DNA from: Elusimicrobiota bacterium
GTDB taxonomy: Bacteria > Elusimicrobiota > Elusimicrobia > Elusimicrobiales > UBA9959
Direction: 5' to 3'
NCBI GenBank assembly: GCA_027340875.1
Contig: DAIENX010000048.1
Location: 1-27,622, forward strand
Length of the DNA: 27,622 nt
Positions 5,503 to 27,622 of the stretch are shown here, in pieces. How positions within the stretch are numbered: position 1 is the stretch's first letter; the number at the start of each line of letters is the position of its first letter. The position numbers and the translations under genes were made by a program. Under the pieces are notes generated by a model. That model was not told the DNA's origin, did not search any database, and was given only the letters and a program-made list of their open reading frames with translations.

Positions 5503-6645
5503 ATGCTAGAATTCAAGGATATGAAGAACATGAATAAGATGTCCTTGCTGATACTCTTGTTCGCTGTCCCTGGCCTGCTGCAGGCGCAGGCTCCGTCCAA
5601 GGAGACTTCCGGGAAACCCGCGGTCAAGAAGACCGCGCCCGCCGCCAAGAAAAAGACCGCCAAGCCGGCCGCCGAGAAGGCAAAGCCGGCCGCCGAGAAG
5701 GCAAAGCCGGCCGCGGAGCAGACCAAGCCGGCCGCGGAGCAGACCAAGCCGGTCTCGCCGCAAGCAAAGCAGGAAGCTCCCGTGAGCCCTTTTGATTCCG
5801 CGATGGCCGGCCTGAAGTCCAAGGACGCCGCGGAACGCCGCCAGGCCGCGGAGAAGCTGGGGCAGTTGCGCGACCAGAAGGCCGTTCCCGCGCTTATAAA
5901 GGCCATTTCCGACCAGTCGCCGCTGGTGAGGCAGTCCGCCGTCGATTCGCTGGGGCTGATGACCAGCCGTGAAGCCGCTCCCGTCCTGGCCGATGTCCTT
6001 ATCAAGGATGCCGACCCAGCGGTGCGCCAGCAGGCCGCGATATCGCTCTCCTATATTATGGACCAGAACACGGGTCCGGCTCTGGTAAAGGCCCTCAAGG
6101 ACCCCGCTCAGCCTGTGCGCTACGCGGCCCTGCATACGCTGGGTGTGATCCATTACGCTCCAGCCGAGAAGGATATGATCGGCATGCTCGCCTCCGAGGA
6201 CCAGAGCATGCGACGGGGGGCCATCGCCTCGCTCGGCCAGATGCAGTCCAAATCCGCCGGCGAGCCCATAGCCGCCCAGCTCGGCGACCCGGACCAGTAC
6301 GTCAAGATAGAGGCCATCAAGGCCGTTGGCAATATCGGCTATGCGCCGGCCGCGCCGCAGCTCGTCAAGCTGCTGGACAAGTCAGAGCAGCCGCCGGTCC
6401 GGGTGGAAGCAGCCCTCGCGCTCTCCAAGATGGGCATGCCCGACGGTCTGATGACCGCTTACGAGTTCATCAGGTCTCCTGAGCTCAGCATGCGCAGCCA
6501 GTCGATGAACATAATAGCCGCCGTAGGAGACGCCCGCAGCCTGCAGTTCGTGCAGGAGTTGTACAACACCGAGACGGACCCCTCCAACAAGAGCATGCTG
6601 GACTTCACCGTCCAGAGGCTCAAGGCCAGGCTGTCCCAGAAATAA
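5503..6645 (+). CDS. Exported HEAT-repeat protein with Lys/Ala/Pro-rich linker
   Basis: GGAGG RBS; signal-like LLILLFAVPGLLQAQA; about eight HEAT/PBS-lyase-type repeats (VRQSAVDSLG, VRYAALHTLG, VRVEAALALS). Confidence 0.85.
   Translation: MLEFKDMKNMNKMSLLILLFAVPGLLQAQAPSKETSGKPAVKKTAPAAKKKTAKPAAEKAKPAAEKAKPAAEQTKPAAEQTKPVSPQAKQEAPVSPFDSAMAGLKSKDAAERRQAAEKLGQLRDQKAVPALIKAISDQSPLVRQSAVDSLGLMTSREAAPVLADVLIKDADPAVRQQAAISLSYIMDQNTGPALVKALKDPAQPVRYAALHTLGVIHYAPAEKDMIGMLASEDQSMRRGAIASLGQMQSKSAGEPIAAQLGDPDQYVKIEAIKAVGNIGYAPAAPQLVKLLDKSEQPPVRVEAALALSKMGMPDGLMTAYEFIRSPELSMRSQSMNIIAAVGDARSLQFVQELYNTETDPSNKSMLDFTVQRLKARLSQK
5662..5752 (+). repeat. In-frame 21-bp tandem repeat (4 units plus partial) encoding KPAAEKA x2, KPAAEQT x2
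   Basis: AAGCCGGCCGCCGAGAAGGCA x2, AAGCCGGCCGCGGAGCAGACC x2, then AAGCCGG. Confidence 0.95.
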
Positions 6646-6681
6646 CCCGGGCGCCCCTTCCGGCGCCCCGGACCCCGGCAG

Positions 6682-6954
6682 ATGGCAAGGAACAAGGCGA
6701 AAGCAAAGCGCGCGCAGGCGAACCAGCCCGCGCGCGCTGTTTTTCCGGCGCCGGTTGTCGTTCCGGCGGAAGAGGAGGGGGGGAGGAAACCCCTCTGGCT
6801 TTGGCTGCTGGCCGCGGTACTTATTGTCTGCGGCTATTCCCTCCTTGGTAAAGTCGATCCGTACGGCCAGAACATCTGGGCGGTGCTCTCCCCGGTGCTT
6901 ATTCTGGCCGGCTACCTGGCAATTATCCCGGCAATACTGCTGACCTTCCGGTAA
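6682..6954 (+). CDS. Small membrane protein with two predicted TM helices
   Basis: Basic N-terminus followed by two hydrophobic segments. Same strand as, and 36 bp after, the HEAT gene. Confidence 0.7.
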   Translation: MARNKAKAKRAQANQPARAVFPAPVVVPAEEEGGRKPLWLWLLAAVLIVCGYSLLGKVDPYGQNIWAVLSPVLILAGYLAIIPAILLTFR

Positions 6955-7202
6955 TTAACGGCTTCCCGGCGGATATTCTGTCCGGAAATGCCGGATTTCC
7001 CTTTACGGAGGGGGGAAAGAAGGTCTTGGCGGACTTTCTCGGACATTTACTGGCGCCGCTTTCCCCTCATTTTCCCTGAGATCCGGGCAAATCTCCGGAT
7101 TTTGGGCGTTTTGGGCCGTGAGGTCACCTTATTCTCCCGATAATTCCCCACCATGAGGCCGCCGGCTCCCCGACATCCGCGAATTGCAGCGGGTTTTTTC
7201 CT

Positions 7203-7554
7203 CCTCGTGGTATTTTCAAAGTTCCTTAGATCGCCCCGTACCCGGGCTTTTTGAGGTCTTGGCCGTCTTCATGGTATTTTGCGGAACGGCTATTTCCCGC
7301 CCTTTATTCTGCCTGTTTTGCCCCTCATTGCCTTCATAGTGTTTTGAAAAAGCCGAAAAACAGGCTGATTTTCGCCTGTTTTCAGGGGGGGTGGCTTGCT
7401 GGTATTTTGAGGAATTTGGCCCTATAGGGGGTATTTCAGGCCTGGGAAAACCCTGCTCAACCTCCCCTATCCGGGCCGGCTAAATGGGTTTTAAAAAGTT
7501 GCCAACTTTTCGCGGCTCCGGGTTCGCGGCACGGAGGCCTCTTCATGGTATTTT
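7203..7554 (+). repeat. Dispersed direct-repeat array, consensus CTTCATGGTATTTT (5 copies)
   Basis: Copies at 7203 (CCTCGTGGTATTTT), 7267 (exact), 7332 (CTTCATAGTGTTTT), 7395 (CTTGCTGGTATTTT) and 7541 (exact). Spacings 64, 65, 63 and 146 bp. Confidence 0.7.
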
Positions 7555-8941: not shown

Positions 8942-10270
8942 TTAGAATTTGGCCGAGACGGCCCCGTAGACCAGTTTGGCTTCCTTGGCGTAGGGATACA
9001 GGCCGAGCGGCGTGAAGACCGCGTAGAGGGCCGTCAGGCGAAGATTGTCGCCCATCGGGTAGGCCGCCTTTATGTCCCACTCGCTGGCGATCTGCAGCGA
9101 GCCGTCAGCGGCGTTCTTGGAGGCCCGGAACTTGTAGAGGTCCGCGGAAAGGGTGAGCTTCTTGTACGGCAGATCGGCCCCGATGTTGATGATGTTGATT
9201 CCGGAGACGCCGTAAGGCAGCCCGTTCAGCGTCGAGGAGGTCTTGGCCATGTCGTAGAGGCTGGCCCCGGCTATCGCGCCGTAGCCGTTGCGCTCCAGGC
9301 CGCTGAATTTCCGGCCGAAGGTCGGGAAGAAGGCCTTGTCGGTATCGGAGCCGGTGCCGGGGTTGCCGGAGGAGCGGCCGTAGGCGAGCCTGAGCCTGGA
9401 CGGGCCGAAGAAAGCGATGTCCTGGTTCCAGGCGCCCTTCAGCATGAAGGCGTGGGCCTCGTATTTCCCGGAGCCTCCTCCGGCGAGTTTGGCCGTGCCG
9501 CGCTGTACTACGGCTTCTCCGTCGAAAGTGAGCTGGCTCTGCGTGAGGTAGTAACGTATGCCGGTGAACTTCTTGGTCCTGGAGGAGGCGTTGAAGAGGA
9601 TGTCCTGACCGGCTCCGCCGTCCTTCTCCCAGAAGTGGTACACCTGCCAGAGGCCTTCGGCCGCGGGGTAGTACGCCGCGCCGCCGAGCAGCGTGAAGTA
9701 GCGGCCGCCGGCGAAAGGCCGGAAGGCGAACACGTCGGCCTTTACCCGGCGGAAGACGTTCTCGGCCTCGAGGAGGCCGCCGGGCAGGCCCAGGTCGTCG
9801 CCGGAAAGAGTGATGCCCTGGCCCAGCGTGAAGTCCTGGCGGCCGAAGGTCGCGGTCACGTTGGGCTTTACGAACTTGTAGATCTTCACGTAGGCGTTGC
9901 GCACGTACGGAGTGCCGTCGGCGTGCGGCAGGCGCGCCGCGGCGTCGGCGAACTGCGGCGCCGAGAGCGTGTTGGAGGACGCCCCCTGGCCAACGCTCTG
10001 CAGCACGATCCCCACGTCCATAGACGAGGACTGCGTCTTCTCCAGGCGTATGCCCTTGATGACGAAGCCCAGCGTGGCGTTCTCGGAGAAAAGCGGCTGG
10101 GACACGGCCGAGTCGCCGTACGGCAGGTGCGCGTAATTGGAGGCCTTCAGCTCGACCTCGGAGGAGAGATCGAGCTTGGTGGCGCCGGCCAGGGAGGCCA
10201 GGGACAGTAGGAAAGCCGCCGCTGCCAGGCGGCGTGAGAGGCTATGGTGTCGGCGTTGCTGCCTGCTCAT
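8942..10270 (-). CDS. Outer-membrane beta-barrel protein (alginate-export/porin-like)
   Basis: Signal peptide, alternating beta-strand pattern, TFGRQ motif and C-terminal Phe (VSAKF). Extended -10 TGtTATAAT just upstream. Confidence 0.75.
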   Translation of the reverse strand: MSRQQRRHHSLSRRLAAAAFLLSLASLAGATKLDLSSEVELKASNYAHLPYGDSAVSQPLFSENATLGFVIKGIRLEKTQSSSMDVGIVLQSVGQGASSNTLSAPQFADAAARLPHADGTPYVRNAYVKIYKFVKPNVTATFGRQDFTLGQGITLSGDDLGLPGGLLEAENVFRRVKADVFAFRPFAGGRYFTLLGGAAYYPAAEGLWQVYHFWEKDGGAGQDILFNASSRTKKFTGIRYYLTQSQLTFDGEAVVQRGTAKLAGGGSGKYEAHAFMLKGAWNQDIAFFGPSRLRLAYGRSSGNPGTGSDTDKAFFPTFGRKFSGLERNGYGAIAGASLYDMAKTSSTLNGLPYGVSGINIINIGADLPYKKLTLSADLYKFRASKNAADGSLQIASEWDIKAAYPMGDNLRLTALYAVFTPLGLYPYAKEAKLVYGAVSAKF

Positions 10271-10315
10271 GTGCGTTTAAATTATAACAAATAATATACG
10301 CGCTTCCCCGCTGAC

Positions 10316-10353
10316 AAAAACAAAAGCCCCGGGGCCGCCGGGCCCCGGGGCTT
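10316..10353 (-). terminator. Intrinsic terminator
   Basis: 13-bp stem AAGCCCCGGGGCC/GGCCCCGGGGCTT with 4-nt loop, preceded by A-tracts. Confidence 0.8.
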
Positions 10354-10369
10354 CGGGCGCGCGCCGGTG

Positions 10370-11626
10370 TCAGAAGCCGATGTTCATATACAGGCTTCCG
10401 AGATTGACGGAGTCGTCCTTGCCTCCGATCTTGTAGGTGTCCGGGATGAACTTCGCCAGACCGAGCTTTAGCGCGACGTTCCTGGTGTGGGTCCAGGTCG
10501 CGACCAGGTCGGCCTCGTTGCCCGCGTGCTTCGCGCCGCCGAACTTCCGGGTGAACGTGAAGCTGTAGAACCTGGCCGCCAGACCGAGCTTCTTTACCTT
10601 CTCCGGGGCCCAGTCGGCGCCGAGGTTCCAGGTGGTCAGGTTGTTGAGGCTGGTGTTGGCGGAGTTGTTCACGGCGTTGACGGTGTCCCTCATGCCTACT
10701 CCGCCTATGATCAGGCCGGGGCGGTAGTTGGCGCTGATGTCCATGAACCCCTCGTTCTTGCCCGCCGAGCCTTTGTCGCCGGAGCCCCTCGCGAACTCTC
10801 CGCTGAAGGTCCACCTGCCCATGAAGGAGTAGTCGTAGGCCGCGTTCAGCTTGAACGCGTAGCCGGTGTATTTCTGGGCGGCCACGTGGTCGCGGCCGAG
10901 GTTCTTGGCGAACTCGCCGCCGTACCTTACGCCCATATATTCGCCTTTACCCTTCAGGCCGAGCACTATCAGGTCCTTGGGGCTGCCGAGGGCGGTCATG
11001 GTCTTTTTCTGGTAGACGTAGGCGGCCGGCTTGATGATCTTGGAGTAGTCGTAGCTGCCGGTGACGCCGTAGACGTCGGTGTCGGTGTTGGTTATCGTGT
11101 TGGTCTCGGCGACCTTGGCGACCACTCCGGAGACGGCGAGCTTGTCCTTGGCCCACTGCGAGGTCCACCCGTCCAGCGCGACGTTGTTGGCGTTGAGGCC
11201 GCGGGTGTACCAGTTGGCGGGCCCGTAGTAGATCACTATGTCCCCGTCGCTGCCGTAATACTGCCGGCCGATCCGGTGGTCCAGCGTGAAGAGGTTCCTT
11301 AGCGTGACGTAGGCCTGGTCTATGAGGAAGCTGTCGGCGGCCGTGGCGACCGGCGCCTCGGAGGCCTGCGCGAACTTCCTGTTGCACTTGTTGAAGCTCA
11401 GGTTCGCCGCCACGTCCTCGTTGAGGTCGAAGCCGGCGTTTATCATCACGCGGTTCTGCACATCGCCGAACTTGTCCGCCGCGCGCCTGTTGAAGTCGTT
11501 TGAATTGTTCACCACCATACCCGCCGCTTCCAGGGAACCGCCCGCCTTGAAGTTCTTCAGTATCTCGGCGTTGACGGCCGAGGCCGTAAGCGCCGTAAGC
11601 GTTATACCCAGTATTGCACGTTTCAT
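10370..11626 (-). CDS. Outer-membrane beta-barrel protein (alginate-export/porin-like), 418 aa
   Basis: True start MKRAILG at 11626 with AGGAGG RBS; signal peptide; IDQAYV..IGRQ and GNEADL motifs; C-terminal YMNIGF. Confidence 0.8.
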   Translation of the reverse strand: MKRAILGITLTALTASAVNAEILKNFKAGGSLEAAGMVVNNSNDFNRRAADKFGDVQNRVMINAGFDLNEDVAANLSFNKCNRKFAQASEAPVATAADSFLIDQAYVTLRNLFTLDHRIGRQYYGSDGDIVIYYGPANWYTRGLNANNVALDGWTSQWAKDKLAVSGVVAKVAETNTITNTDTDVYGVTGSYDYSKIIKPAAYVYQKKTMTALGSPKDLIVLGLKGKGEYMGVRYGGEFAKNLGRDHVAAQKYTGYAFKLNAAYDYSFMGRWTFSGEFARGSGDKGSAGKNEGFMDISANYRPGLIIGGVGMRDTVNAVNNSANTSLNNLTTWNLGADWAPEKVKKLGLAARFYSFTFTRKFGGAKHAGNEADLVATWTHTRNVALKLGLAKFIPDTYKIGGKDDSVNLGSLYMNIGF

Positions 11627-18248: not shown

Positions 18249-19472
18249 CTACTGTTTCCTGGCCGGGTCCTCCACCCTGCCGATGAACAGTATCAGGCCT
18301 GTCCCCGGCTGCTCGATCACGAACAGGAAGGGCCTGTCCGCGCGGAAGACGGCGTAGTCGAGAACTATCGATTTCAGTCCCATCGCGGCGCCGGTGGCGG
18401 CCGCGGCCTCCGTCCCCTCCTCGGTGACCTCCACGAACGCCTTGTGGAAGGCCTTCTGTATGTAGAGGTCCTTGGTGCCGTCCATCCCGGAGAAGTCCGC
18501 CTTGTCGGTGAACGCGGTGGGCATTCCCAGGGCCGCCAGCGAAGAGTTCATCGTGAAACCGTAGCCGAAGGTGAACTTGGGCAGGAAGACCTTGACCTTC
18601 TGGGTATAGAGCTCCTTCCTCGCGGCCTCCAGCGCTTCCGGGGACAATCCGGCCTCGAGCGCGGAGAGCTGTACCCCTTCCTTGGGCAGCAGGACCAGCA
18701 TCGACAATCCTCCCCCCTTGTACGGCAGGCGCAGGACCTGCTTCTGCGCGTCCTCCCCGTATTCCAGCTCCCGTTCGCCCTTCAGGGCCATCATCGGTAC
18801 TTTCAGCTTGGCGCCGCCGGGCCCTGCGAAGTCGGCCTCCGCGGTTAGGGCCGGGTCGAAGCGGTGCTCCCACGAGCCCTTGAAATAGACGGCGTTGACC
18901 AGCACCAGGCGCGTGAGCGGGTCCAGCGAGCCCTCGGGGAAGAGCCCGCGTATCCTGCCGCCGGTGGCGTTCTCGGTCCACATGTTTATCCTGCGCCGCG
19001 CTTCGTCGGTCTTCCCCTTGAAGTCGGCGTTCATGGCCTGGGCCGAATAGTCGGAGCGCAGCGTTTTCAGGTAGTCCTTGCTGAACTTGTAGCCGTCCTG
19101 GGCCCAGAAGGAGTCGGCTTGCGTGAAGACAGCGCCTTTGAGCGATGAGGCCAGGGCTTTCTTCAGCTCCGCAGTTCCGGCCCGGAGGTCCTTGGTCTTG
19201 GGCGGGAAAGAGAAGACCGAGGACATCTCCTCGGCCGTGCGGCCCCGGGCCCCCTCGTAGACCCCAGAGAAGGCGCCGTAGATGCTGTAAGGGGAGAAGA
19301 AGAGGTTGCCGGGCTTCCTGGCTTCCGCGGCGTAGAGCTTGAAGGCGATGATGTTGGCGCGCGCCGCCGGGGACGGCTGCGGAGCTTGCTTCTTCCCGGT
19401 CTCCGCGGCCGAGCAGGCGCCGGCGGCGAAGGCGGCGATGGCGGCGGCCGCCAGAAGGTTCTGGAGCTTCAT
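18249..19472 (-). CDS. Exported serpin (serine protease inhibitor)
   Basis: NLFFSPYSI, LVNAVYFKGSW, hinge EEGTEAAAAT and FRADRPFLF motifs; N-terminal signal peptide; AAGGAGG RBS. Confidence 0.95.
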   Translation of the reverse strand: MKLQNLLAAAAIAAFAAGACSAAETGKKQAPQPSPAARANIIAFKLYAAEARKPGNLFFSPYSIYGAFSGVYEGARGRTAEEMSSVFSFPPKTKDLRAGTAELKKALASSLKGAVFTQADSFWAQDGYKFSKDYLKTLRSDYSAQAMNADFKGKTDEARRRINMWTENATGGRIRGLFPEGSLDPLTRLVLVNAVYFKGSWEHRFDPALTAEADFAGPGGAKLKVPMMALKGERELEYGEDAQKQVLRLPYKGGGLSMLVLLPKEGVQLSALEAGLSPEALEAARKELYTQKVKVFLPKFTFGYGFTMNSSLAALGMPTAFTDKADFSGMDGTKDLYIQKAFHKAFVEVTEEGTEAAAATGAAMGLKSIVLDYAVFRADRPFLFVIEQPGTGLILFIGRVEDPARKQ

Positions 19473-20311: not shown

Positions 20312-20876
20312 CGTCTTCTTCCCCCTCGCTATTCTCCTCCTCGTCCTGGCCCTCCTGTTTGTCGCCTGAGAGGAGCTGGCCGATGATGTCGTTTGGCTTG
20401 AGGTTCTTCAGGTCGTGCTTGAAGCGGGTGACCTCGTCCTCCGTTATCGGCTTGCTCAGGACCTGGGTCTTGGAGAAAACTTTCTCGGAAATATAGACGG
20501 GGCAGCCGAAGCGCACCGCCAGCGCCACCGCGTCGGAAGGCCGGGAGTCGACCTGCCTGGGGTCGGAGCCGTCCGGCTTCGCTATGTGCAGCGTGGAATA
20601 ATAGGTGTTCTCTACGATGTCGTCTATGACCACCTTCTTCAGGGTCAGGCCGAGCGTCTTGATCAGCGAGAAGAGCAGGTCGTGCGTCATCGGCCTGGGG
20701 GACGGGTAGCCGGACAGGCGTATGGCTATGGCCTGCGCCTCCATCGGCCCTATCCAGATCGGCAGTATCCTGGTGCCGTCGGTCTCGTCCAGGAAGATTA
20801 TGGACTCCGTCATGCTGGTGGCGATGGAGTAGATGCGCACCTCCACCAGATCGTCGGGGCTGCGTTCTTCCGTCAT
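20298..20876 (-). CDS. Bifunctional nuclease family protein (DUF151)
   Basis: LPIWIGPMEAQAI, RPMTHDL and DSRPSDAVALA motifs; start MTEER overlaps the plsY stop (ATGA). Confidence 0.9.
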   Translation of the reverse strand: MTEERSPDDLVEVRIYSIATSMTESIIFLDETDGTRILPIWIGPMEAQAIAIRLSGYPSPRPMTHDLLFSLIKTLGLTLKKVVIDDIVENTYYSTLHIAKPDGSDPRQVDSRPSDAVALAVRFGCPVYISEKVFSKTQVLSKPITEDEVTRFKHDLKNLKPNDIIGQLLSGDKQEGQDEEENSEGEEDDEQT

Positions 20877-21541
20877 TGTTCCTTCTTCTCCCCGTCCTGC
20901 GGAGGCGGCTGCTTCCCGTGTTTGAAGGAGAGCTCCGCGCCTTTCAGTATGCGGCGAATGTTGGCGATGTGGGTGTAGAAGATCAGCGCGCAGACGGCCA
21001 GCGCCAGCAGCGTGAACGGCCGCTGGTAGTCCTTGGCCAGAAGGAAGCAGAGCACCGGCAGCGCGACGGAGGCGGACATCGAGCCCACCGAGATATGGCT
21101 GGTGAGCGCCACCGCTATGCCGAACACCACGAAGGCCCCCGCGGTGGGGACGGGCAGCAGCGCGGCGAAAACGCCGGCCGCGGTGGCCACGCCTTTGCCG
21201 CCGCGGAAGTTGAGGAACACGGTCCAGATATGGCCCGCTATGGCCAGCGCGCCGGCCGTGACCGGTATCCACCAGTGGCCCTTGCTGAAATCCATCGAGC
21301 CGGGGATGAAGAAGTACTGCGTCGCCACCCAGGCCGGGCCGAAGCCCTTCAGGAAGTCGAAAGTGAAGGTCGCTATGCCGGGGCCCTTGCCCAGCGTGCG
21401 GTAGACGTTGGCCGTGCCCGGGTTCCCGGAGCCGTGCTTGCGTATGTCTATCCCCTTCAGCCGACCTATCAGGTAGCCGGTGGGGATCCCTCCCAGCACG
21501 TAGCTGGAGACGAAGAGAATGGCGATCTTTATATGTGTCAT
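20873..21541 (-). CDS. plsY: Glycerol-3-phosphate acyltransferase PlsY
   Basis: DIRKHGSGNPGTANVYR, FRGGKGVAT and HIANIRR motifs. Confidence 0.95.
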   Translation of the reverse strand: MTHIKIAILFVSSYVLGGIPTGYLIGRLKGIDIRKHGSGNPGTANVYRTLGKGPGIATFTFDFLKGFGPAWVATQYFFIPGSMDFSKGHWWIPVTAGALAIAGHIWTVFLNFRGGKGVATAAGVFAALLPVPTAGAFVVFGIAVALTSHISVGSMSASVALPVLCFLLAKDYQRPFTLLALAVCALIFYTHIANIRRILKGAELSFKHGKQPPPQDGEKKEQ

Positions 21542-21584
21542 GTAGGCTCTATGGAAAGTATAGAAAAAATAAGGGATTATTTCA

Positions 21585-22832
21585 TCAGGCGCCGGCCTTT
21601 TTCAACAGCCGGGCGTAATTCTCCGGCGTGGCCTTGAACTTCAGCGTGACGTCGCGCTGGCCGTATTCCGCCGCGCTGACCAGGCAGGAGGAATAGATCT
21701 CCGCTATCAGCCCCCTGGACCCGGCGGGTATTTTGAGCTCGTATTCCCCCCAGCGTTTGGAGAGCGCCCGCTCGCAGGCCGCGAGCAGCCCGTCCACGCC
21801 CTCGCCGGTAAGTGCCGAGACGAAGAGCGGCTTAAGGCTGGCCGGGGCCCAGGCGGAGGAGGACGGGTCCTCCACCGCGTCGGCCTTGTTGAAGACGTTT
21901 ATGACGGGTATGCCGCTGATACCCAATTCCTTCAGCGTGGCCTTCACGGCCTCGTGCTGCGGGCGTGCCTCCGGGGAACTGAGGTCGTGCACGTGCAGGA
22001 TCAGGTCGCTGTAGCGGATCTCCTCCAGCGTGGCGCGGAAGGCGGCGATAAGGTCGTGCGGCAGTTTTTGTATGAAGCCGACGGTGTCGGTGAACAGCGC
22101 CCAGCCGCCGGCGGGCAGGCGCACGCGCTTGGTGGTAGGGTCGAGCGTGGCGAAGAGCTTGTCGTCGGCGTAGATGCCGTGGCGGCTGCCGGTCAGTTTG
22201 TTGAGCAGCGTGCTCTTGCCTGCGTTGGTGTAGCCCACGATCGAGACCTGCGGCATCGGGACGGAGTCGCGCTGGGCGCGCTGGGTATGGCGCTCGTCGC
22301 GGATGGACTCTATCTCCCGCTCGAGCTCGGAGATCTTCACGCGCAGCTCGCGCTTGTCGTATTCCAGTTTCTTCTCGCCGGAGCCTCGGCCGCCTATCAT
22401 GCCGCGCTGCTGGTCCATGCTGCCGCCCTTGCCGCCTAGCCGCGACAGCGCGTAGTTGAAGCCGGCAAGCCTGGCCTGCAGCTTGCCCTCGCGAGTGCGG
22501 GCGCGCATCGCGAAGATGTCTATGATGAGCCGCGGCCTGTCGGCCACGTCCACGCCGAAGGCGCGCTCGAGGTTGCGGCCCTGGCCCGGGGTGAGCTCCT
22601 CGTCGAATATAACCGCGCCTGCCCCGGTCTCCTTCACCAGCGCTTTCAGCTCCTCCACCTTGCCGGAGCCTATCAGCGTGGCCGGGTTCCAGGCCTGCAG
22701 GCGCACGTGCAGCTTCCTCACCGGCTCCAGGCCGGCGGTCTCGGTCAGGCGCCAGAGCTCCTCGAGCGAGGTGCCCCCGCCGGAGGCCCTGCGCCCGCGC
22801 TTCAGCGAGGCGGCCACCAGTATGGCTTTCAT
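21585..22832 (-). CDS. hflX: GTPase HflX
   Basis: IGSGKVEEL, ARTREGKLQ, GYTNAGKSTL, LFATLDPT, DTVGF and NKAD motifs. Confidence 0.96.
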   Translation of the reverse strand: MKAILVAASLKRGRRASGGGTSLEELWRLTETAGLEPVRKLHVRLQAWNPATLIGSGKVEELKALVKETGAGAVIFDEELTPGQGRNLERAFGVDVADRPRLIIDIFAMRARTREGKLQARLAGFNYALSRLGGKGGSMDQQRGMIGGRGSGEKKLEYDKRELRVKISELEREIESIRDERHTQRAQRDSVPMPQVSIVGYTNAGKSTLLNKLTGSRHGIYADDKLFATLDPTTKRVRLPAGGWALFTDTVGFIQKLPHDLIAAFRATLEEIRYSDLILHVHDLSSPEARPQHEAVKATLKELGISGIPVINVFNKADAVEDPSSSAWAPASLKPLFVSALTGEGVDGLLAACERALSKRWGEYELKIPAGSRGLIAEIYSSCLVSAAEYGQRDVTLKFKATPENYARLLKKAGA

Positions 22833-23791
22833 GAATTTATTATCCGCTCGGCCAGCGCGCCGGCGTCGTAGTCCTCCGGCTTCTCCAGCTCTATCCTGAG
22901 GACGTTGCGGTAGCGGCCGAACCAGGTGTTCTGGCGCTTGGCGTAGGACATCGAGGCGGCCACTATCTGCCGTATCGCGTCCTGTTTCTCCAGGCGGCCG
23001 GCCAGGTAGTCCAGCATTTGCGGGTAGCCCAGCGTCTTCAGGCCCGGGCAGTCCTCCGCGTAGCCCAGCCGCAGCAGCTCCCTGGTCTCCTCCGCCCAGG
23101 CCTCGAAATTATCCATGGTGCGGCGTTTTACGCGCTCCGTCAGCAGCTCCTTGCTCCACTTCAGGAAGACGAACTTGCCGTCGTGCACGGGCAGCGAGTG
23201 GAAGAAGCGCCCCGTCCAGAGCTGCGAGGCCGGCCTGCCGGCGGCCCTGGTTATCTCTATGGCCCGCATCACGCGCTGCACGTTGCCCGGCGGGATGCGG
23301 CGCGCGGCCTCGGGGTCGAGCTGCTGCAGCTCCGAGTACAGCGCGAGCTTGCCGCCGCTTTCCGCCAGGGCGGTCAGCTGCTGGCGTATGGTCGGGTCCG
23401 ACGGAGGGAGCTCGTCGAGGCCGTTCCAGTAGGCCTGTACGTACATGCCGGTGCCGCCGGCCATTATGGGCACCTTGCCGCGCTTCCAGATCCCGGGGAC
23501 CAGCTTCTTCGCCTCGCGGACGAAGGACCCCGCGTCCCAGGACGCGCGCGGGTCGAGTGTGTCCACCAGGTGGTAGGGAACCCCGTCCACCAGGTAGAAT
23601 TTGCCGTCCGGGGTGTCGGTCCAGGCTCCGCGCGGCTTGGCGGTGCCGGCCTCCATCAGGCGGTAGACCTGCCTGGAATCGGCCGAGAGCACCTCGCCAC
23701 CCAGGCGGCGGGCCAGCTCCAGGGCCAGCCCGGTCTTGCCGGAGGCGTTGGCCCCCATCAGCACCACGGGTTTCAAAAGTTGAACGGACAT
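22829..23791 (-). CDS. miaA: tRNA dimethylallyltransferase
   Basis: GANASGKT, SADSRQVYR, GTAKP, GGTGMY and YAKRQNTWF motifs. Confidence 0.95.
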   Translation of the reverse strand: MSVQLLKPVVLMGANASGKTGLALELARRLGGEVLSADSRQVYRLMEAGTAKPRGAWTDTPDGKFYLVDGVPYHLVDTLDPRASWDAGSFVREAKKLVPGIWKRGKVPIMAGGTGMYVQAYWNGLDELPPSDPTIRQQLTALAESGGKLALYSELQQLDPEAARRIPPGNVQRVMRAIEITRAAGRPASQLWTGRFFHSLPVHDGKFVFLKWSKELLTERVKRRTMDNFEAWAEETRELLRLGYAEDCPGLKTLGYPQMLDYLAGRLEKQDAIRQIVAASMSYAKRQNTWFGRYRNVLRIELEKPEDYDAGALAERIINS

Positions 23792-23861
23792 TCGTCTATA
23801 ATGGAAGCGGCCAGGGGCGTCAAAGCCGTCTGGCCGCTCAGGTCCTTGCTCCGAACTCCTG

Positions 23862-24344
23862 CTATTTCTTCTTGAACAGCGGCTCGTCCTTCTGCGGCTT
23901 GTTGCAGAGGCCGTTGGCGCGGCAGGTCTCCACGCAGACCTCCGGCAGCTTCAGCGCGAAGCGCGTGTCGCAGTCCGAGTAGTCCTCGGCCATGTCGTTG
24001 ATGCGCTTCCTGTCGTCGGGGCTGATCCCGGTGAAAGCGATGCCGTTCATGAAGACTCCGCCCTTGTCCTTTACCCAGGAGATGCGGCCGGTGACCGGGA
24101 TCTCCTTGATGCCGCTGAGCTTGAGGATGATGTTCAGCTCCTTCGTGTGCGGCGGCGCCATGAAGGTTATCAGCCGCATGCCGCCGGCGGAAAGGTCCGA
24201 CAGGATGGCCGGCTGCGGCACGGCCTTGCCGGCCGCGTCCTCGGTGAAAAATTCTATCTCCACGGGCTCCAGGATGCCGTGCAGTATGGGCAGGCGCACG
24301 TGCTGCCGTCTTTCCTTGAGAACCTTGCTGGTTTTTTTCGTCAT
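23862..24344 (-). CDS. PilZ-domain protein with Cys-rich C-terminal extension
   Basis: ERRQHVR (RxxxR) and DLSAGG motifs; tail C-x11-C-x3-C-x5-C. ATGA-coupled to miaB. Confidence 0.85.
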   Translation of the reverse strand: MTKKTSKVLKERRQHVRLPILHGILEPVEIEFFTEDAAGKAVPQPAILSDLSAGGMRLITFMAPPHTKELNIILKLSGIKEIPVTGRISWVKDKGGVFMNGIAFTGISPDDRKRINDMAEDYSDCDTRFALKLPEVCVETCRANGLCNKPQKDEPLFKKK

Positions 24345-25633
24345 ATCAGCTTCCCGTATAAAGTATTTTTTTCGGCCCCGGCCACCAGCACACCCGAGAG
24401 CTTCCCGGGTGTCCCCCCGGCCTTTACCCTCACCGCAAAATTCGCGGAAGAGCGGCCGTACGTGTCGGTCTCGAAAAGAACTTCCTCTATTCTACCAATT
24501 CTTTCTTCCAATACAACCCGGGAATTTTTCTTTACGGCGGCCAGCAGCCTCTCCAGCCTGGCCTCGAGCTCCGCTTCCGGGATGGTAGCCTTCATCTCCG
24601 GCCTGTCGGAGCGCGGCGAGTACTTGAAGCAGTAGGCCAGCGAGAAACGGCCCTCTTCCACGAGGCGCAGCGTGTCCAGGAAGTCGTCCTCGGTCTCGCC
24701 CGGATAGCCCACGATGAAGTCCGTGGAGACGGCCAGGCCCGGCGCGGCTTCCCTGAGCCTGGCCAGCAGGTCCAGGTAGGCCACGCGCGTGTAGCCGCGG
24801 CGCATGGCCTTCAGTATACGGTCGGAGCCGCTCTGCGCCGGCAGGTGCATGTGGCGGGCGAGCTTCGGCTCTTCGGCCAGCACCTTCATGAAGGCCGCGT
24901 CGTAGTAGAGCGGGTGCGGGCTCATGAAGCGCAGGCGCTCCAGGCCCGGCAGGCGCAGGACTTTCCTTAAGAGTTCGGAGAACGTGGTCCGCCCGTGCCT
25001 GTAGGAGTTCACCGTCTGGCCCAGCAGCACCAGCTCCCTGGCCCCGGCGGAAAGCCTGGCGGCCGCGTCCTCGAGGAGGGCCTTCGGGGACAGGCAAACG
25101 GCCGGGCCGCGCACGGCCGGCACTATGCAGTAGGAGCACTTCATCGAGCAGCCGCGCATCACCGTGACGTAGGCCGTCTGCGGGGAACGGAACAGGTTCC
25201 GGTGCTCGGCCTCGCCTTCGGTCGCGGGCCCCAGCTGGCGTATCAGCGAGTCTTCGAACTTCTCTATCGCGCGGGCGCCCACCACCTCGTTGATGAAATC
25301 GAAGCGGCCCTTCAGGTATTTCTCCCCCAGCTTCTGCGCCGCGCAGCCCACCACGAACAGCTTGCCGTCCGGATGGCGCTCCTTCCAGACGCGCAGACGG
25401 CCTATCTGGGAGATGGCCTTGTTCTCCGCCTTCTGGCGCACCGTGCAGGTGTTCACCACCACGGCGTCGGCCTTCTTCAGCTCGGGCGTGACCACGTAGC
25501 CGCGCGCTCTGAACGCCGCGGCTATGTCCTCCGAGTCGGCCTCGTTCATCTGGCAGCCGAAGGTGATAATACAGACCCGTCGTGCTGCCCCGCCCGCCCC
25601 GGGCGGGGCGGCACGTTTTTCAGATTTCTGCAT
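24341..25633 (-). CDS. miaB: tRNA-i6A37 methylthiotransferase MiaB
   Basis: TFGCQMNEADSE, NTCTVR, GCAAQ, radical-SAM CSMKCSYC, LLGQTVNSY, TDFIVGYPGET and a C-terminal TRAM-like domain. Confidence 0.93.
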   Translation of the reverse strand: MQKSEKRAAPPGAGGAARRVCIITFGCQMNEADSEDIAAAFRARGYVVTPELKKADAVVVNTCTVRQKAENKAISQIGRLRVWKERHPDGKLFVVGCAAQKLGEKYLKGRFDFINEVVGARAIEKFEDSLIRQLGPATEGEAEHRNLFRSPQTAYVTVMRGCSMKCSYCIVPAVRGPAVCLSPKALLEDAAARLSAGARELVLLGQTVNSYRHGRTTFSELLRKVLRLPGLERLRFMSPHPLYYDAAFMKVLAEEPKLARHMHLPAQSGSDRILKAMRRGYTRVAYLDLLARLREAAPGLAVSTDFIVGYPGETEDDFLDTLRLVEEGRFSLAYCFKYSPRSDRPEMKATIPEAELEARLERLLAAVKKNSRVVLEERIGRIEEVLFETDTYGRSSANFAVRVKAGGTPGKLSGVLVAGAEKNTLYGKLI

Positions 25634-27177
25634 TTGTTTTTTTCCTTTAAAATTAAAAAATTAAATGGCGCAAAAAATTCTGCATTTTTAATTTTTTTGT
25701 CCCCGACTTTCACGTTCCGCACCAGGACGCCGAGGAGCCGTTTCTTGTCCGCGGCGTCCGGCTCTTTCTCCCCTATATTACCGTCGGAGAGGAACTTGCG
25801 CGCCCTCGCCAGATAGTCCGCGGATTTTTCGCGGTCTATCTGGCGCAAATCGTAGAAGGCCGCCAGTTTTTTCAGTTCTTCGCCTTTCTCCATCAGCTCT
25901 TTATTTGAAGCCTCAAAAACTTCCTTGGACATGAGGCCTTCTATGTAGGCGTCAGTCAATTTCGCCTGTTTGGCGAAATTGTCTGACAGGCCCTGGTGAA
26001 CCGCCTTTTTAGCCTCTTTTTCGTCTTCCGGCAGCTTTATGGGCGGCACGGTCATGTTCGGCCATCGGTTCCCAAATTCGTTACTTCTGAGCAACAGCTC
26101 CAGGAATAATTCAAGTTGCGGTTCAATGACTTCTGCCTTGATGCTCTTGTTGTGGCAGGTCTTATAACTGTTGGTTATTGAAGAGCAACGGTACCATTTC
26201 TTTGTGGCCTTGGTGCGGTGGTTGGAAACCGCGGACGCGCCCACGAACTTGTGATTGCAGTTGCCGCAGAACAGCAGGCCGGACAATAAGTAGTCCCCCG
26301 GTTTGGCCTGCCGGATGGTTATGCGTTTTTCAGCGTGAAGCTTTTGCGCTTGCGCAAAGGCTTCCGCGCTGATTATCGGGAGATGCCTGCCCTGGGCGGT
26401 AATAACCTCGCTGGCGGGGTTTTTGACGTATTTATAGCCCTTTGGTGTTCTCTTGGCCTTGTCGTAATGGTGGGTGTTCCAGACGATCTTGCCGGTATAG
26501 ATAGGGTTTTTAAGTATATCACCTATGGTTTTGGTGCCGAAATAGTTGCCCTTGCGGTTCCTTACGCCCTGCTTGGTAAGGGCCGCGCCTATGGATAAAG
26601 TGCTTTTGCCCTCCAGGTACATGGCGTAGATTTGCCGCACAACCTCGGCCTCGCTCTCAACCAGTTCCAGCAGCTTGGCCGGTTTGTTGTAGGCGTAACC
26701 GTAGGGCGCGTAGCGCGAACCCTGCCAGTTACCCTTTTGAACGCCTTTGACCATGCCGGGGAAAACGCGCTCCGCAATGCGGTTGCGCTCGAACTCGGCA
26801 AAACTGCCAAGTTGCTGAAACATAAGTTTACCGGCCGAGGTTGTGGTATCAAAGGGTTCCCCCGCCGACTTAAAGCCTACGCCGTAGCCGCAAAGCTCGT
26901 CCACCAGGATTAAGAGGTCTTTCAGGTTGCGGCTGAACCGGTCCAGTTTTGCTACCAGTACCAGCCCGAACTTGCCGCCTTTGGCGTCAGCCAAAAGTGC
27001 GGCAAGCGCGGGCCTGCGCGTGGTGGCGCCGCTGATGCCGTCGTCGGAGTAGACCTTGTAGATTTCGTGGCCTTCCCGTTTTACAAAAGCTTCGAGGGTT
27101 TCCCTCTGAACCTCAAGGGAATAGCCTTCCCTCGCCTGGTCTTCCGTGGATACTCGCAGATATAGAGCGGTCTTCAT
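25546..27177 (-). CDS. Large serine recombinase (resolvase catalytic, recombinase and zinc-ribbon domains)
   Basis: ALYLRVSTEDQ (catalytic Ser), DDGISG, KLDRFSRN, FAEFER, APYGY, ILKNPIYTG, LLSGLLFCGNC..YRC..C and a coiled coil. Codon usage visibly more AT-rich than host genes. Confidence 0.95.
   Translation of the reverse strand: MKTALYLRVSTEDQAREGYSLEVQRETLEAFVKREGHEIYKVYSDDGISGATTRRPALAALLADAKGGKFGLVLVAKLDRFSRNLKDLLILVDELCGYGVGFKSAGEPFDTTTSAGKLMFQQLGSFAEFERNRIAERVFPGMVKGVQKGNWQGSRYAPYGYAYNKPAKLLELVESEAEVVRQIYAMYLEGKSTLSIGAALTKQGVRNRKGNYFGTKTIGDILKNPIYTGKIVWNTHHYDKAKRTPKGYKYVKNPASEVITAQGRHLPIISAEAFAQAQKLHAEKRITIRQAKPGDYLLSGLLFCGNCNHKFVGASAVSNHRTKATKKWYRCSSITNSYKTCHNKSIKAEVIEPQLELFLELLLRSNEFGNRWPNMTVPPIKLPEDEKEAKKAVHQGLSDNFAKQAKLTDAYIEGLMSKEVFEASNKELMEKGEELKKLAAFYDLRQIDREKSADYLARARKFLSDGNIGEKEPDAADKKRLLGVLVRNVKVGDKKIKNAEFFAPFNFLILKEKNKCRNLKNVPPRPGRAGQHDGSVLSPSAAR
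25581..25620 (+). terminator. Plus-strand intrinsic-terminator-like hairpin inside the miaB/recombinase overlap
   Basis: 15-bp stem CGTGCTGCCCCGCCC/GGGCGGGGCGGCACG (G-U pair only on + strand), 5-nt loop, followed by TTTTT. Confidence 0.6.
25632..25699 (-). repeat. Left copy of >=68-bp perfect inverted repeat
   Basis: Exact reverse complement of 27555-27622. Confidence 0.95.
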
Positions 27178-27181
27178 ATGG

Positions 27182-27355
27182 CTACCTTATGGTTTCCTTC
27201 CACTTTTTGATTTTGCGTATATCCGCCTCAGTGAACACCGGGAAGTCTTTGTAATCACGCCCGGGCTTTATCCATCCGCGGCTTATCCAGTTGTAGAGGG
27301 TCTGGCGTGTTACGCGCAGCAGTTTGGCGGCTTCAACCATGTTGTAGCGCTTCAT
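27182..27355 (-). CDS. Small excisionase/MerR-like HTH protein (57 aa), candidate recombination directionality factor
   Basis: YNMVEAAKLLRVTRQTLYNWISRG and VFTEADI motifs; 4 bp upstream of the recombinase. ATG lies 6 nt after TATAAT (AAGACA-17-TATAAT). Confidence 0.85.
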   Translation of the reverse strand: MKRYNMVEAAKLLRVTRQTLYNWISRGWIKPGRDYKDFPVFTEADIRKIKKWKETIR

Positions 27356-27554
27356 AGAGATATTATACAAGGTTTTACACCCGTTGTCTTCTTCTTTTTC
27401 CCCGCTAATACCGGGGCAGCCCGGCTTGCCCGGGCTGTACCGGTTTTAGCTCCGCCTCTTCCGGGGGCTACATATAATTAACAGGAAAGCCAGCCAGGGC
27501 CGAGCGTACGCGAGGCCGGGGCGGGTTTTCAATCAACCGGTGGCCCCCGGTCTT

Positions 27555-27622
27555 CAAAAAAATTAAAAATGCAGAATTTTTTGCGCCATTTAATTTTTTA
27601 ATTTTAAAGGAAAAAAACAAAT
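27555..27622 (+). repeat. Right copy of >=68-bp perfect inverted repeat (runs to the window end)
   Basis: CAAAAAAATTAAAAATGCAGAATTTTTTGCGCCATTTAATTTTTTAATTTTAAAGGAAAAAAACAAAT. Confidence 0.95.

Follow-up and report, generated by a model that had tools for sequence, protein, structure and literature searches.

The right-hand end of contig DAIENX010000048.1 (assembly GCA_027340875.1), the whole 27,622-nucleotide length of which is referred to here as the window, raises the question as to why a large serine recombinase (LSR) gene and a small helix-turn-helix (HTH) gene of an Elusimicrobiota bacterium lie between two inverted copies of the start of the tRNA-modification gene miaB. An initial annotation, made from the letters of the window, proposed a candidate self-inverting module that controls miaB. 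Comparison with related loci shows this module to be the right end of a larger integrated defence-gene island, and we hold with high confidence both that the island anatomy described here is correct and that the locus is not a miaB phase switch. By every testable feature except possession of a single phage-type attachment site (attP) the element is an LSR integrative island, and it has the look of an island type not previously described, more than that of an on/off switch for miaB.

Is the repeat real? Positions 25632-25699 and 27555-27622 are exact reverse complements (68 nt, 100%) with a 1855 nt spacer, as initially annotated, with the HTH gene and LSR inside, and both copies carry the miaB ribosome binding site (RBS) and start; the runner-up inverted pair within the window reaches merely 39-40 nt at 70-72%. 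The window is the whole of contig C112 in a 112-contig metagenome-assembled genome (MAG), and the contig end cuts the right copy. An assembly artefact at this end would fit with the halting of the right copy there and with a MAG contamination of 5.5%, but we consider the chance of this negligible and reject it for the repeat itself. The same repeat occurs with island-specific sequence at 41 loci in many assemblies, and a self-inverted tail (the last 40 bases repeated inverted in the same contig) is present at 1 of the 224 contig ends of the genome, that of C112 only. Matching sequence, namely the P2 arm and left junction (attL) described below, is present on contig C11, and the junctions are found in separately assembled contigs from four runs of a single study, possibly including the source sample. 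A link across 27554/27555 had been suggested as a check, and in run X1 a contig of depth 11.2 crosses this boundary and extends 30 letters into the repeat (the bar being 31 letters); in run X2 one contig parts from the window at 25554, its next 24 letters matching the P2 start on C11 exactly. An exact-overlap search of the own assembly returned no continuation of the right copy; extension past 27622, the second suggested check, was made through homology, which placed the continuation, at the inverted P2, on C11.

In relatives the full arm reaches the TG|C codon of miaB, which gives 146 bp (25554-25699) for the subtype in the window, and 146-bp inverted pairs are also present in genomes G056, G265, G162, G458 and G461 and at locus L069. 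Positions 27555..27622 (+) are the inner 68 bp of an inverted copy of this arm, termed P1, and form the left half of the internal second attP, with ~127 bp missing before the P2 arm at the C11 end. The initial annotation had allowed for a longer inverted duplication or an end artefact; the former was correct, the repeat being the contig-cut part of the 146-bp arm, and the latter was not.

What lies beyond the window? Along miaB the layout of the island is native miaB start, P2, element E (a hairpin), cargo, inverted P2, inverted P1, E, HTH gene, LSR, P1 and the rest of miaB. It is complete on single contigs in G024 (2 islands), G049 and G059 and split across C11 and C112 in this genome. The integration target is the Cys codon of the miaB TFGCQMN motif and every junction meets at TG (window 25554-25555); in hybrid junctions of G024 and of this genome (G000) the base 3 nt before the arm end tracks the left partner. 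On C11 the native miaB start MKKVHIITFG remains at attL, followed by a stop, the 450-bp hairpin-rich P2 arm, E and ~25.5 kb of defence cargo, and the contig closes with inverted P2. The right junction (attR) is in the window, attP is internal and in tandem junctions, and empty sites (attB) are present in G005 and G021, with a shorter native miaB start and a -10-like box just 5' of the start. No empty-site contig was among the loose ends listed from the separately assembled runs. The right copy had been expected to point at another gene, but runs on into 27 codons of miaB start, followed by a stop and the 450-bp hairpin arm; there is no gene on the other side. From this layout, and from the meeting of all junctions at TG, it follows that the right-hand repeat is half of a complete inverted attP inside an integrated island. 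Judged from the assembled junctions the integrated island retains this second complete attP, and in this alone it departs from the single attP of LSR islands.

The features in common with LSR islands are the catalytic Ser, recombinase and zinc-ribbon parts with a coiled coil, the attL and attR hybrids, and horizontal spread with precise ends. LSRs 97-98% identical adjoin miaB genes that are only 76-82% identical but share their first 26 codons, so the replacement miaB start moves with the LSR. The island has a GC content of 46-58% compared with 64% for the genome, and a scan of 25 C11 open reading frames (ORFs), 15 of them scanned a second time, identified a type I restriction-modification (RM) set together with PDC-S02, SIR2-like and PLD/helicase genes.

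Several further observations concern the cargo and related islands. Two uncharacterised genes, L063:10761-11375 (204 aa, signal-like start) and L063:8103-8501 (132 aa), recur near the cargo end beside inverted P2, with homologues in G024 and G049 and no Pfam or PADLOC match. Cargo including AbiV is also found on either side of the HTH gene, in the gap to the LSR or in that to the arm (G024 C15 612184-613686, G002 C303, L161, L315), the recombinase module thus also carrying up to 8 kb of cargo. LSR-less units consisting of P2, E, cargo and a short miaB-start copy form head-to-tail, integron-cassette-like arrays at miaB in G010 C27, G019 C60, G020 C5, G049 C51 and G017 (L017). This genome contains at least 3 more islands of the same family, on C46 (tRNA-Ser LSR, 101-bp arms, attL on C27), C78 (a type I RM island, possibly with reversed cargo) and C84 (a P2 junction at the contig end), and in G019 (L046) a decayed LSR copy has an in-frame stop after residue 454 with intact arms adjoining.

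How widespread is this design? The LSR has a match at an E-value of at most 1e-40 in 19 of the 43 genus genomes and these genes nearly always end on miaB; the closest relatives are from Elusimicrobia and more distant ones from Omnitrophota and Planctomycetia. Our miaB-type tally comprises 98 LSR loci (30 elements from genomes plus L069-L104, L113, L117, L155-L183, L227 and L228), the remaining loci, which were distant recombinases, being left out; at least one bracketing repeat was listed among these (L243, 73% over 2.2 kb). The counts are not of independent loci, as these are related and in some cases nearly duplicates. An inverted copy is present in 41 of the 63 loci with at least 52% LSR identity; the other 22 mostly have short flanks, but G058, L086, L090 and L095 lack it with 2.5-7.7 kb of flank. 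None of the 35 loci below 52% has one; 20 of these have at least 7.5 kb upstream and two (L163 and L175) are plain attL-cargo-LSR islands. Among 45 loci on viral contigs no element with an inverted attP was found. One viral contig (L228) carries at 9728-11455 a 42%-identical miaB-type LSR in the attP form together with terminase small subunit and T7 gp14-like genes, and temperate podovirus-like phages may use the miaB site. A second LSR family, 21% identical and tRNA-targeting, has a match in 42 of the 80 family genomes; bracketing arms (99-140 bp, 88-99%) are present at 20 of the 30 loci returned and its P2 hairpin core is in common with the miaB type. Two unrelated LSR families in the same bacteria keep a second, inverted, sequence-matched attP in the island. 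Of the 43 genus genomes, 41 have P2-like arms, and together with the frequency of the tRNA-type LSR this points to these islands as a main route of defence-gene gain for these groundwater bacteria, and they are a likely reason for the breaking of assemblies at these loci.

Does the module invert, and does inversion serve a purpose? In the 18 loci whose two arms could both be read as far as the core, the P1 arms of an island differ from each other at 0-8 of 146 positions and from those of other islands at medians of 43-96, the own arm is the nearest in 16 of the 18, and P2 pairs are up to 99.7% identical over 330-470 bp; by these alignments the arms appear to evolve in concert. Orientation is near-fixed in both modules. 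At miaB the promoter-side arm is joined to P2 in 27 and to miaB in 2 of the 29 cases readable among the 41, and the LSR end meets miaB in 27/30 and P2, in tandem islands, in 3/30. In the tRNA type the promoter-side arm joins P2 in 17/19 and the tRNA in 2/19, with the LSR end at the tRNA in 29/33. Cargo is oriented with E at the attL end in all 13 decidable islands (5 miaB-type, 8 tRNA-type), G009, two G056 contigs, G014 and C78 of this genome being undecided and left out. A pattern search for the flipped junction, made in 401 phylum genomes that included 21 of the 43 from the genus, hit one, G134; a separate, too loose pattern gave 43 listed matches, of which 11 are true E-P1-P2 junctions and the others chance, and k-mer (Logan) contigs cannot phase orientation across a 146-bp repeat. 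Flips thus appear rare, and equally rare where no gene could be regulated.

These counts bear directly on the proposal that the LSR or RecA flips the HTH-LSR module usefully often, toggling read-through into miaB-pilZ-miaA-hflX. The flipped arrangement does exist, in G134 and as a promoter-side miaB junction in L070, and to this extent the inversion that was initially proposed is borne out; in addition a native miaB promoter-like site stays behind at attL, terminator-like E would precede miaB after a flip, and an OFF state could be counter-selected and hence rare in assemblies. However, the strong one-sidedness at miaB recurs at tRNA targets, where nothing is regulated, the RBS, start and AT-rich tract are the same in both arms, and a switch leaves unexplained both the 330-470-bp inverted P2 pair around the cargo and its fixed orientation. 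The divergent promoters of the initial annotation were not recovered either, as sigma-70-like sites were found solely on the minus strand (3 compared with a shuffle mean of 1.0), the best at 27390-27362 ahead of the HTH gene. Recombination of attP with attR is not a known integrase reaction; for the A118 integrase the available text of PMC3556126 gives attP x attB as the only efficient pairing, attP x attP at <5% and none for attP with attL or attR, so that flipping of the module by the LSR is not an expected reaction. Phase control of miaB is on this evidence improbable.

The rare junctions between a second attP and a host target differ in form. On a 98-kb contig of G134 it is the promoter-side arm that adjoins miaB; the miaB operon there is intact and the LSR faces away from it. 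In L070 miaB sequence lies beyond both arms. On C39 of this genome (L068) a tRNA-His-type LSR has an attR-like junction at each end, each running into tRNA-His and a Memo/AMMECR1 gene, with the two copies (6003-7459 and 8954-10408) 91% identical over 1461 bp; either a second attP is joined to the target of another strain or the contig is chimeric. In G391 (L366) the LSR ends in tRNA-Glu and the promoter-side arm, of tRNA-Ser type, is joined to tRNA-Ser, a possible island-driven chromosome rearrangement. A separate feature of G134 is a second copy of the native miaB upstream region with P2, 90% identical, inside an island array (C11 132839-133287 and 139018-139463), which we read as host flank captured from another strain.

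What does the second attP mean for the recombinase? The LSR frame crosses the core, so that the attR form reads through the crossover and stops after 2 residues, 2 codons into miaB, while the attP form gains 19-21 residues instead, in a pattern conserved in translation across P2 arms and across phyla. The last ~28 residues, which the initial annotation had a flip exchange, are not swapped because they lie inside the duplicated arm; a flip would replace the last 2 by the 19-21-residue helix. In the model of a long form (L036, 90% identical), which has a mean predicted local distance difference test (pLDDT) score of 78.9, this helix spans 541-559 after a loose linker, and among the alignments it is present only where the LSR gene runs into P2. 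Solved relatives match the LSR only up to profile position 498. Docking of the helix piece on helices at the coiled-coil base was predicted with a score of 0.66 (best of 3 controls 0.00), with runs agreeing in at least 78% of contacts and a partner pLDDT of at least 66; the docking mark is reached by 116/157 solved and 2/215 mismatched pairs. In SPbeta, according to the available text of PMC11722253, a helix of the recombination directionality factor (RDF) is essential and is packed against the inter-hinge segment on one side and the second DNA-binding domain on the other. The att-encoded helix is predicted to dock in the region which the RDF helix restrains. Going by LSR biology, the short and long LSR forms may differ in directionality.

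The confinement of the helix to the attP form is also what would be expected if the second attP served as an integrase-state switch or spare site, letting a resident island occasionally make full-length LSR by flipping, or offering a ready attP for LSR-less cassettes or a new attB, with arms kept alike by gene conversion. The tandem LSR-less arrays at miaB in G010, G019, G020, G049 and G017 fit with this, as does the promoter-side arm lying on a second, differing host target in C39 (91% identical flanks), L366 (tRNA-Ser vs tRNA-Glu) and L070. The double-attR contigs may however be two-strain chimeras, gene conversion without cargo inversion in 13/13 islands needs an extra assumption, and tandem islands already yield full-length LSR without any flip. 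We consider this explanation rather unlikely.

Ordinary excision and integration explains the ends and spread of the islands, but not the unequal use of two attP sites nor the matched arms without cargo inversions. The reading to which we incline, by a little more than even chances, is that of an island of fixed orientation in which, during the mobile stage, the two arms pair with one another. By what is known of LSRs, excision would be by attL x attR and re-integration by attP x attB, by way of the attP in which the island's LSR gene ends. The two 600-bp arms would pair most simply by the folding back of one strand on itself, giving a dumbbell with a double-stranded attP as its stem; as single-stranded DNA the fold of P2 is much stronger than that of shuffled sequences (z -4.4, 0/100). 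Such pairing would keep the arms identical without randomising orientation, and flipping of HTH-LSR would then be an infrequent side effect, brought about by RecA within P1 or by use of the second attP, and not the purpose. That the arms exist in order to pair is the weakest step, which we put forward tentatively and would not expect to hold with even odds. More doubtful still is the full version, in which islands across Elusimicrobiota, Omnitrophota and neighbours travel as single-strand dumbbells with a fold-back attP, directionality is set by the att-encoded helix and LSR-less defence cassettes form integron-like arrays, the whole being a serine-recombinase counterpart of CTXphi and integron fold-back chemistry.

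A number of points weigh against arm pairing and its extensions. No single-stranded or circular form was observed among the assembled contigs, arm mismatches have no G.T strand bias (P1 38 vs 41, P2 38 vs 48), and they show no shortage of transitions when set against the differences between islands (12:14 vs 60:87), so that neither of two sequence signatures of fold-back was found. Serine recombinases cut both strands, and insertion of a dumbbell without chromosome breakage is hard to envisage. No vehicle was found: the MOBQ relaxase PF03389 (MobA_MobL) is in 0 of the 43 genus genomes, a search that did not extend to other relaxase families, and the VirB4 family is in 0 of 5 genomes. Flipped junctions exist in G134, L070, C39 and L366, and the orientation counts, which come from related short-read assemblies, are non-independent and report the majority form only, while bubble-popping could inflate arm identity. 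As regards the helix, docking used two pieces of one protein (L036) with an author-built alignment, a case that tends to pass.

A different use of paired arms is known from the yeast 2-micron plasmid, in which two ~600-bp inverted repeats contain the recombinase site, the recombinase gene runs into one of them and free flipping gives equimolar isomers; the islands here are integrated and occur as one isomer. By analogy, the LSR would recombine the inverted attP pair in an excised circle during replication and so raise copy number. Two inverted ~600-bp arms with a recombination site would indeed split such a circle into a recombinase part and a cargo part, and weak attP x attP recombination is known for A118. 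The model predicts both cargo orientations whereas 13/13 are one way, no replication gene was among the 25 C11 cargo ORFs scanned, and SPbeta attP-attP synapses are thought to be blocked (available text of PMC11722253). We regard amplification of this kind as very improbable.

How do these islands compare with known systems? They resemble the SPbeta, A118, Bxb1 and phiC31 integrases in their catalytic, recombinase, zinc-ribbon and coiled-coil parts and in having four types of att junction about an asymmetric core of 2 bp. An integrase is generally taken to spend its one attP on integration. Here attL and attR are accompanied by a complete extra inverted attP with homogenised arms of 150+450 bp, and because attP falls within the LSR gene, a conserved C-terminal helix is lost on integration. 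The CTXphi attP, integron attC and strand-biased SE elements have a fold-back double-stranded site, strand-fixed insertion and cassette arrays, and use tyrosine recombinases with exchange of one strand. A site made double-stranded by fold-back would be the likeness to the islands, for which it is proposed only, and we know of no fold-back single-strand element with a serine recombinase.

Islands associated with dusA use a different integrase family, of the tyrosine type. According to the available text of PMC4482086 they insert in the 5' end of a tRNA-modification gene, restore this 5' end and carry type I RM cargo, and are thus alike in target class, replacement 5' end and cargo and differ in target gene; that text names rimO, mnmE and rluA as other targets, not miaB, and says nothing of an inverted attP within the island. 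Invertible switches (Hin, Mpi, FimB/E and the gene-altering programmed inversions of PMC9881135, as available) likewise have a recombinase gene between inverted repeats and a flip that moves a promoter and changes a C-terminus, but here the repeats are long integrase att arms, ~93% are in one orientation across genomes and the same design is present at tRNA sites; miaB is absent from the available main text of PMC9881135. Searches of the open-access literature, supplements excluded, turned up no account of LSR islands that target miaB or that keep an inverted attP inside them, and tables of LSR targets could list miaB. The islands add miaB to the tRNA-modification genes that serve as restored integration targets, and make testable both a serine recombinase acting on a folded single strand and an att-encoded helix that replaces or opposes a directionality factor, which is relevant to integrase engineering.

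Table 1 Features of the right-hand part of the window
Feature	Position	Strand	Description
Host genes 3' of miaB	20873..24344	-	Abutting or closely spaced: pilZ-domain, miaA, hflX and a gene that we take to be PlsY-like
miaB	24341..25633	-	430 aa; codons 1-26 island-supplied, remainder host; UPF0004 and Radical_SAM; replacement 5' end
LSR, attR (short) form	25546..27177	-	543 aa; PF00239, PF07508, PF13408 (Resolvase, Recombinase, Zn_ribbon_recom)
Probable central dinucleotide of attR	25554..25555	-	TG of Cys codon; arms stop exactly there
P1 arm at attR	25554..25699	-	146 bp; LSR 3' codons, miaB RBS, replacement 5' end
Hairpin within P1	25581..25615	.	GC-rich
HTH gene	27182..27352	-	56 aa, HTH_17/MerR-type; conserved ahead of LSR
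Predicted promoter	27362..27390	-	Sigma-70-like, 10/12 consensus matches; for HTH-LSR and, by read-through, miaB
Element E	27462..27547	-	A-tract/GC stem/T-tract hairpin; direct repeat just inside attL on C11

The Ser10 motif and four Cys (C304/C307/C331/C341) of the LSR are invariant, the protein is modelled with a long coiled coil and its closest solved relative by sequence and fold match is the SPbeta integrase. The HTH protein may be a regulator or a directionality factor. Element E has an 86% match to C11:42299-42386, is present in two copies per island in G024 and G049 and has a fold z of -1.9; an Rfam scan of the G024 copy returned no family and just 2 sub-threshold matches, and E is by its sequence a putative terminator-like or cis signal.

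Three further roles were considered for E and P2 and rejected. A MOBQ oriT role for E fails on the MobA_MobL and VirB4 counts given above, and what we took to be a likeness to the MOBQ nick site is not kept in Omnitrophota copies. A REP/RAYT link for P2 was dropped as Y1 transposases are present in 5/5 genomes but P2 had no match in their 10 flanking loci at an E-value of at most 0.05. If a circle of cargo plus attP were released between the two copies of E, LSR-less units should be reversed, and the observed units have E first.

Elsewhere in the window, positions 18249-19472 encode a 407-aa protein with a signal-like start beside tRNA-Pro, presumably serpin-like, and at 5639-5773 five repeats at 21-bp spacing lie in a Lys/Ala/Pro-rich coding stretch that has the appearance of a histone-like tail.

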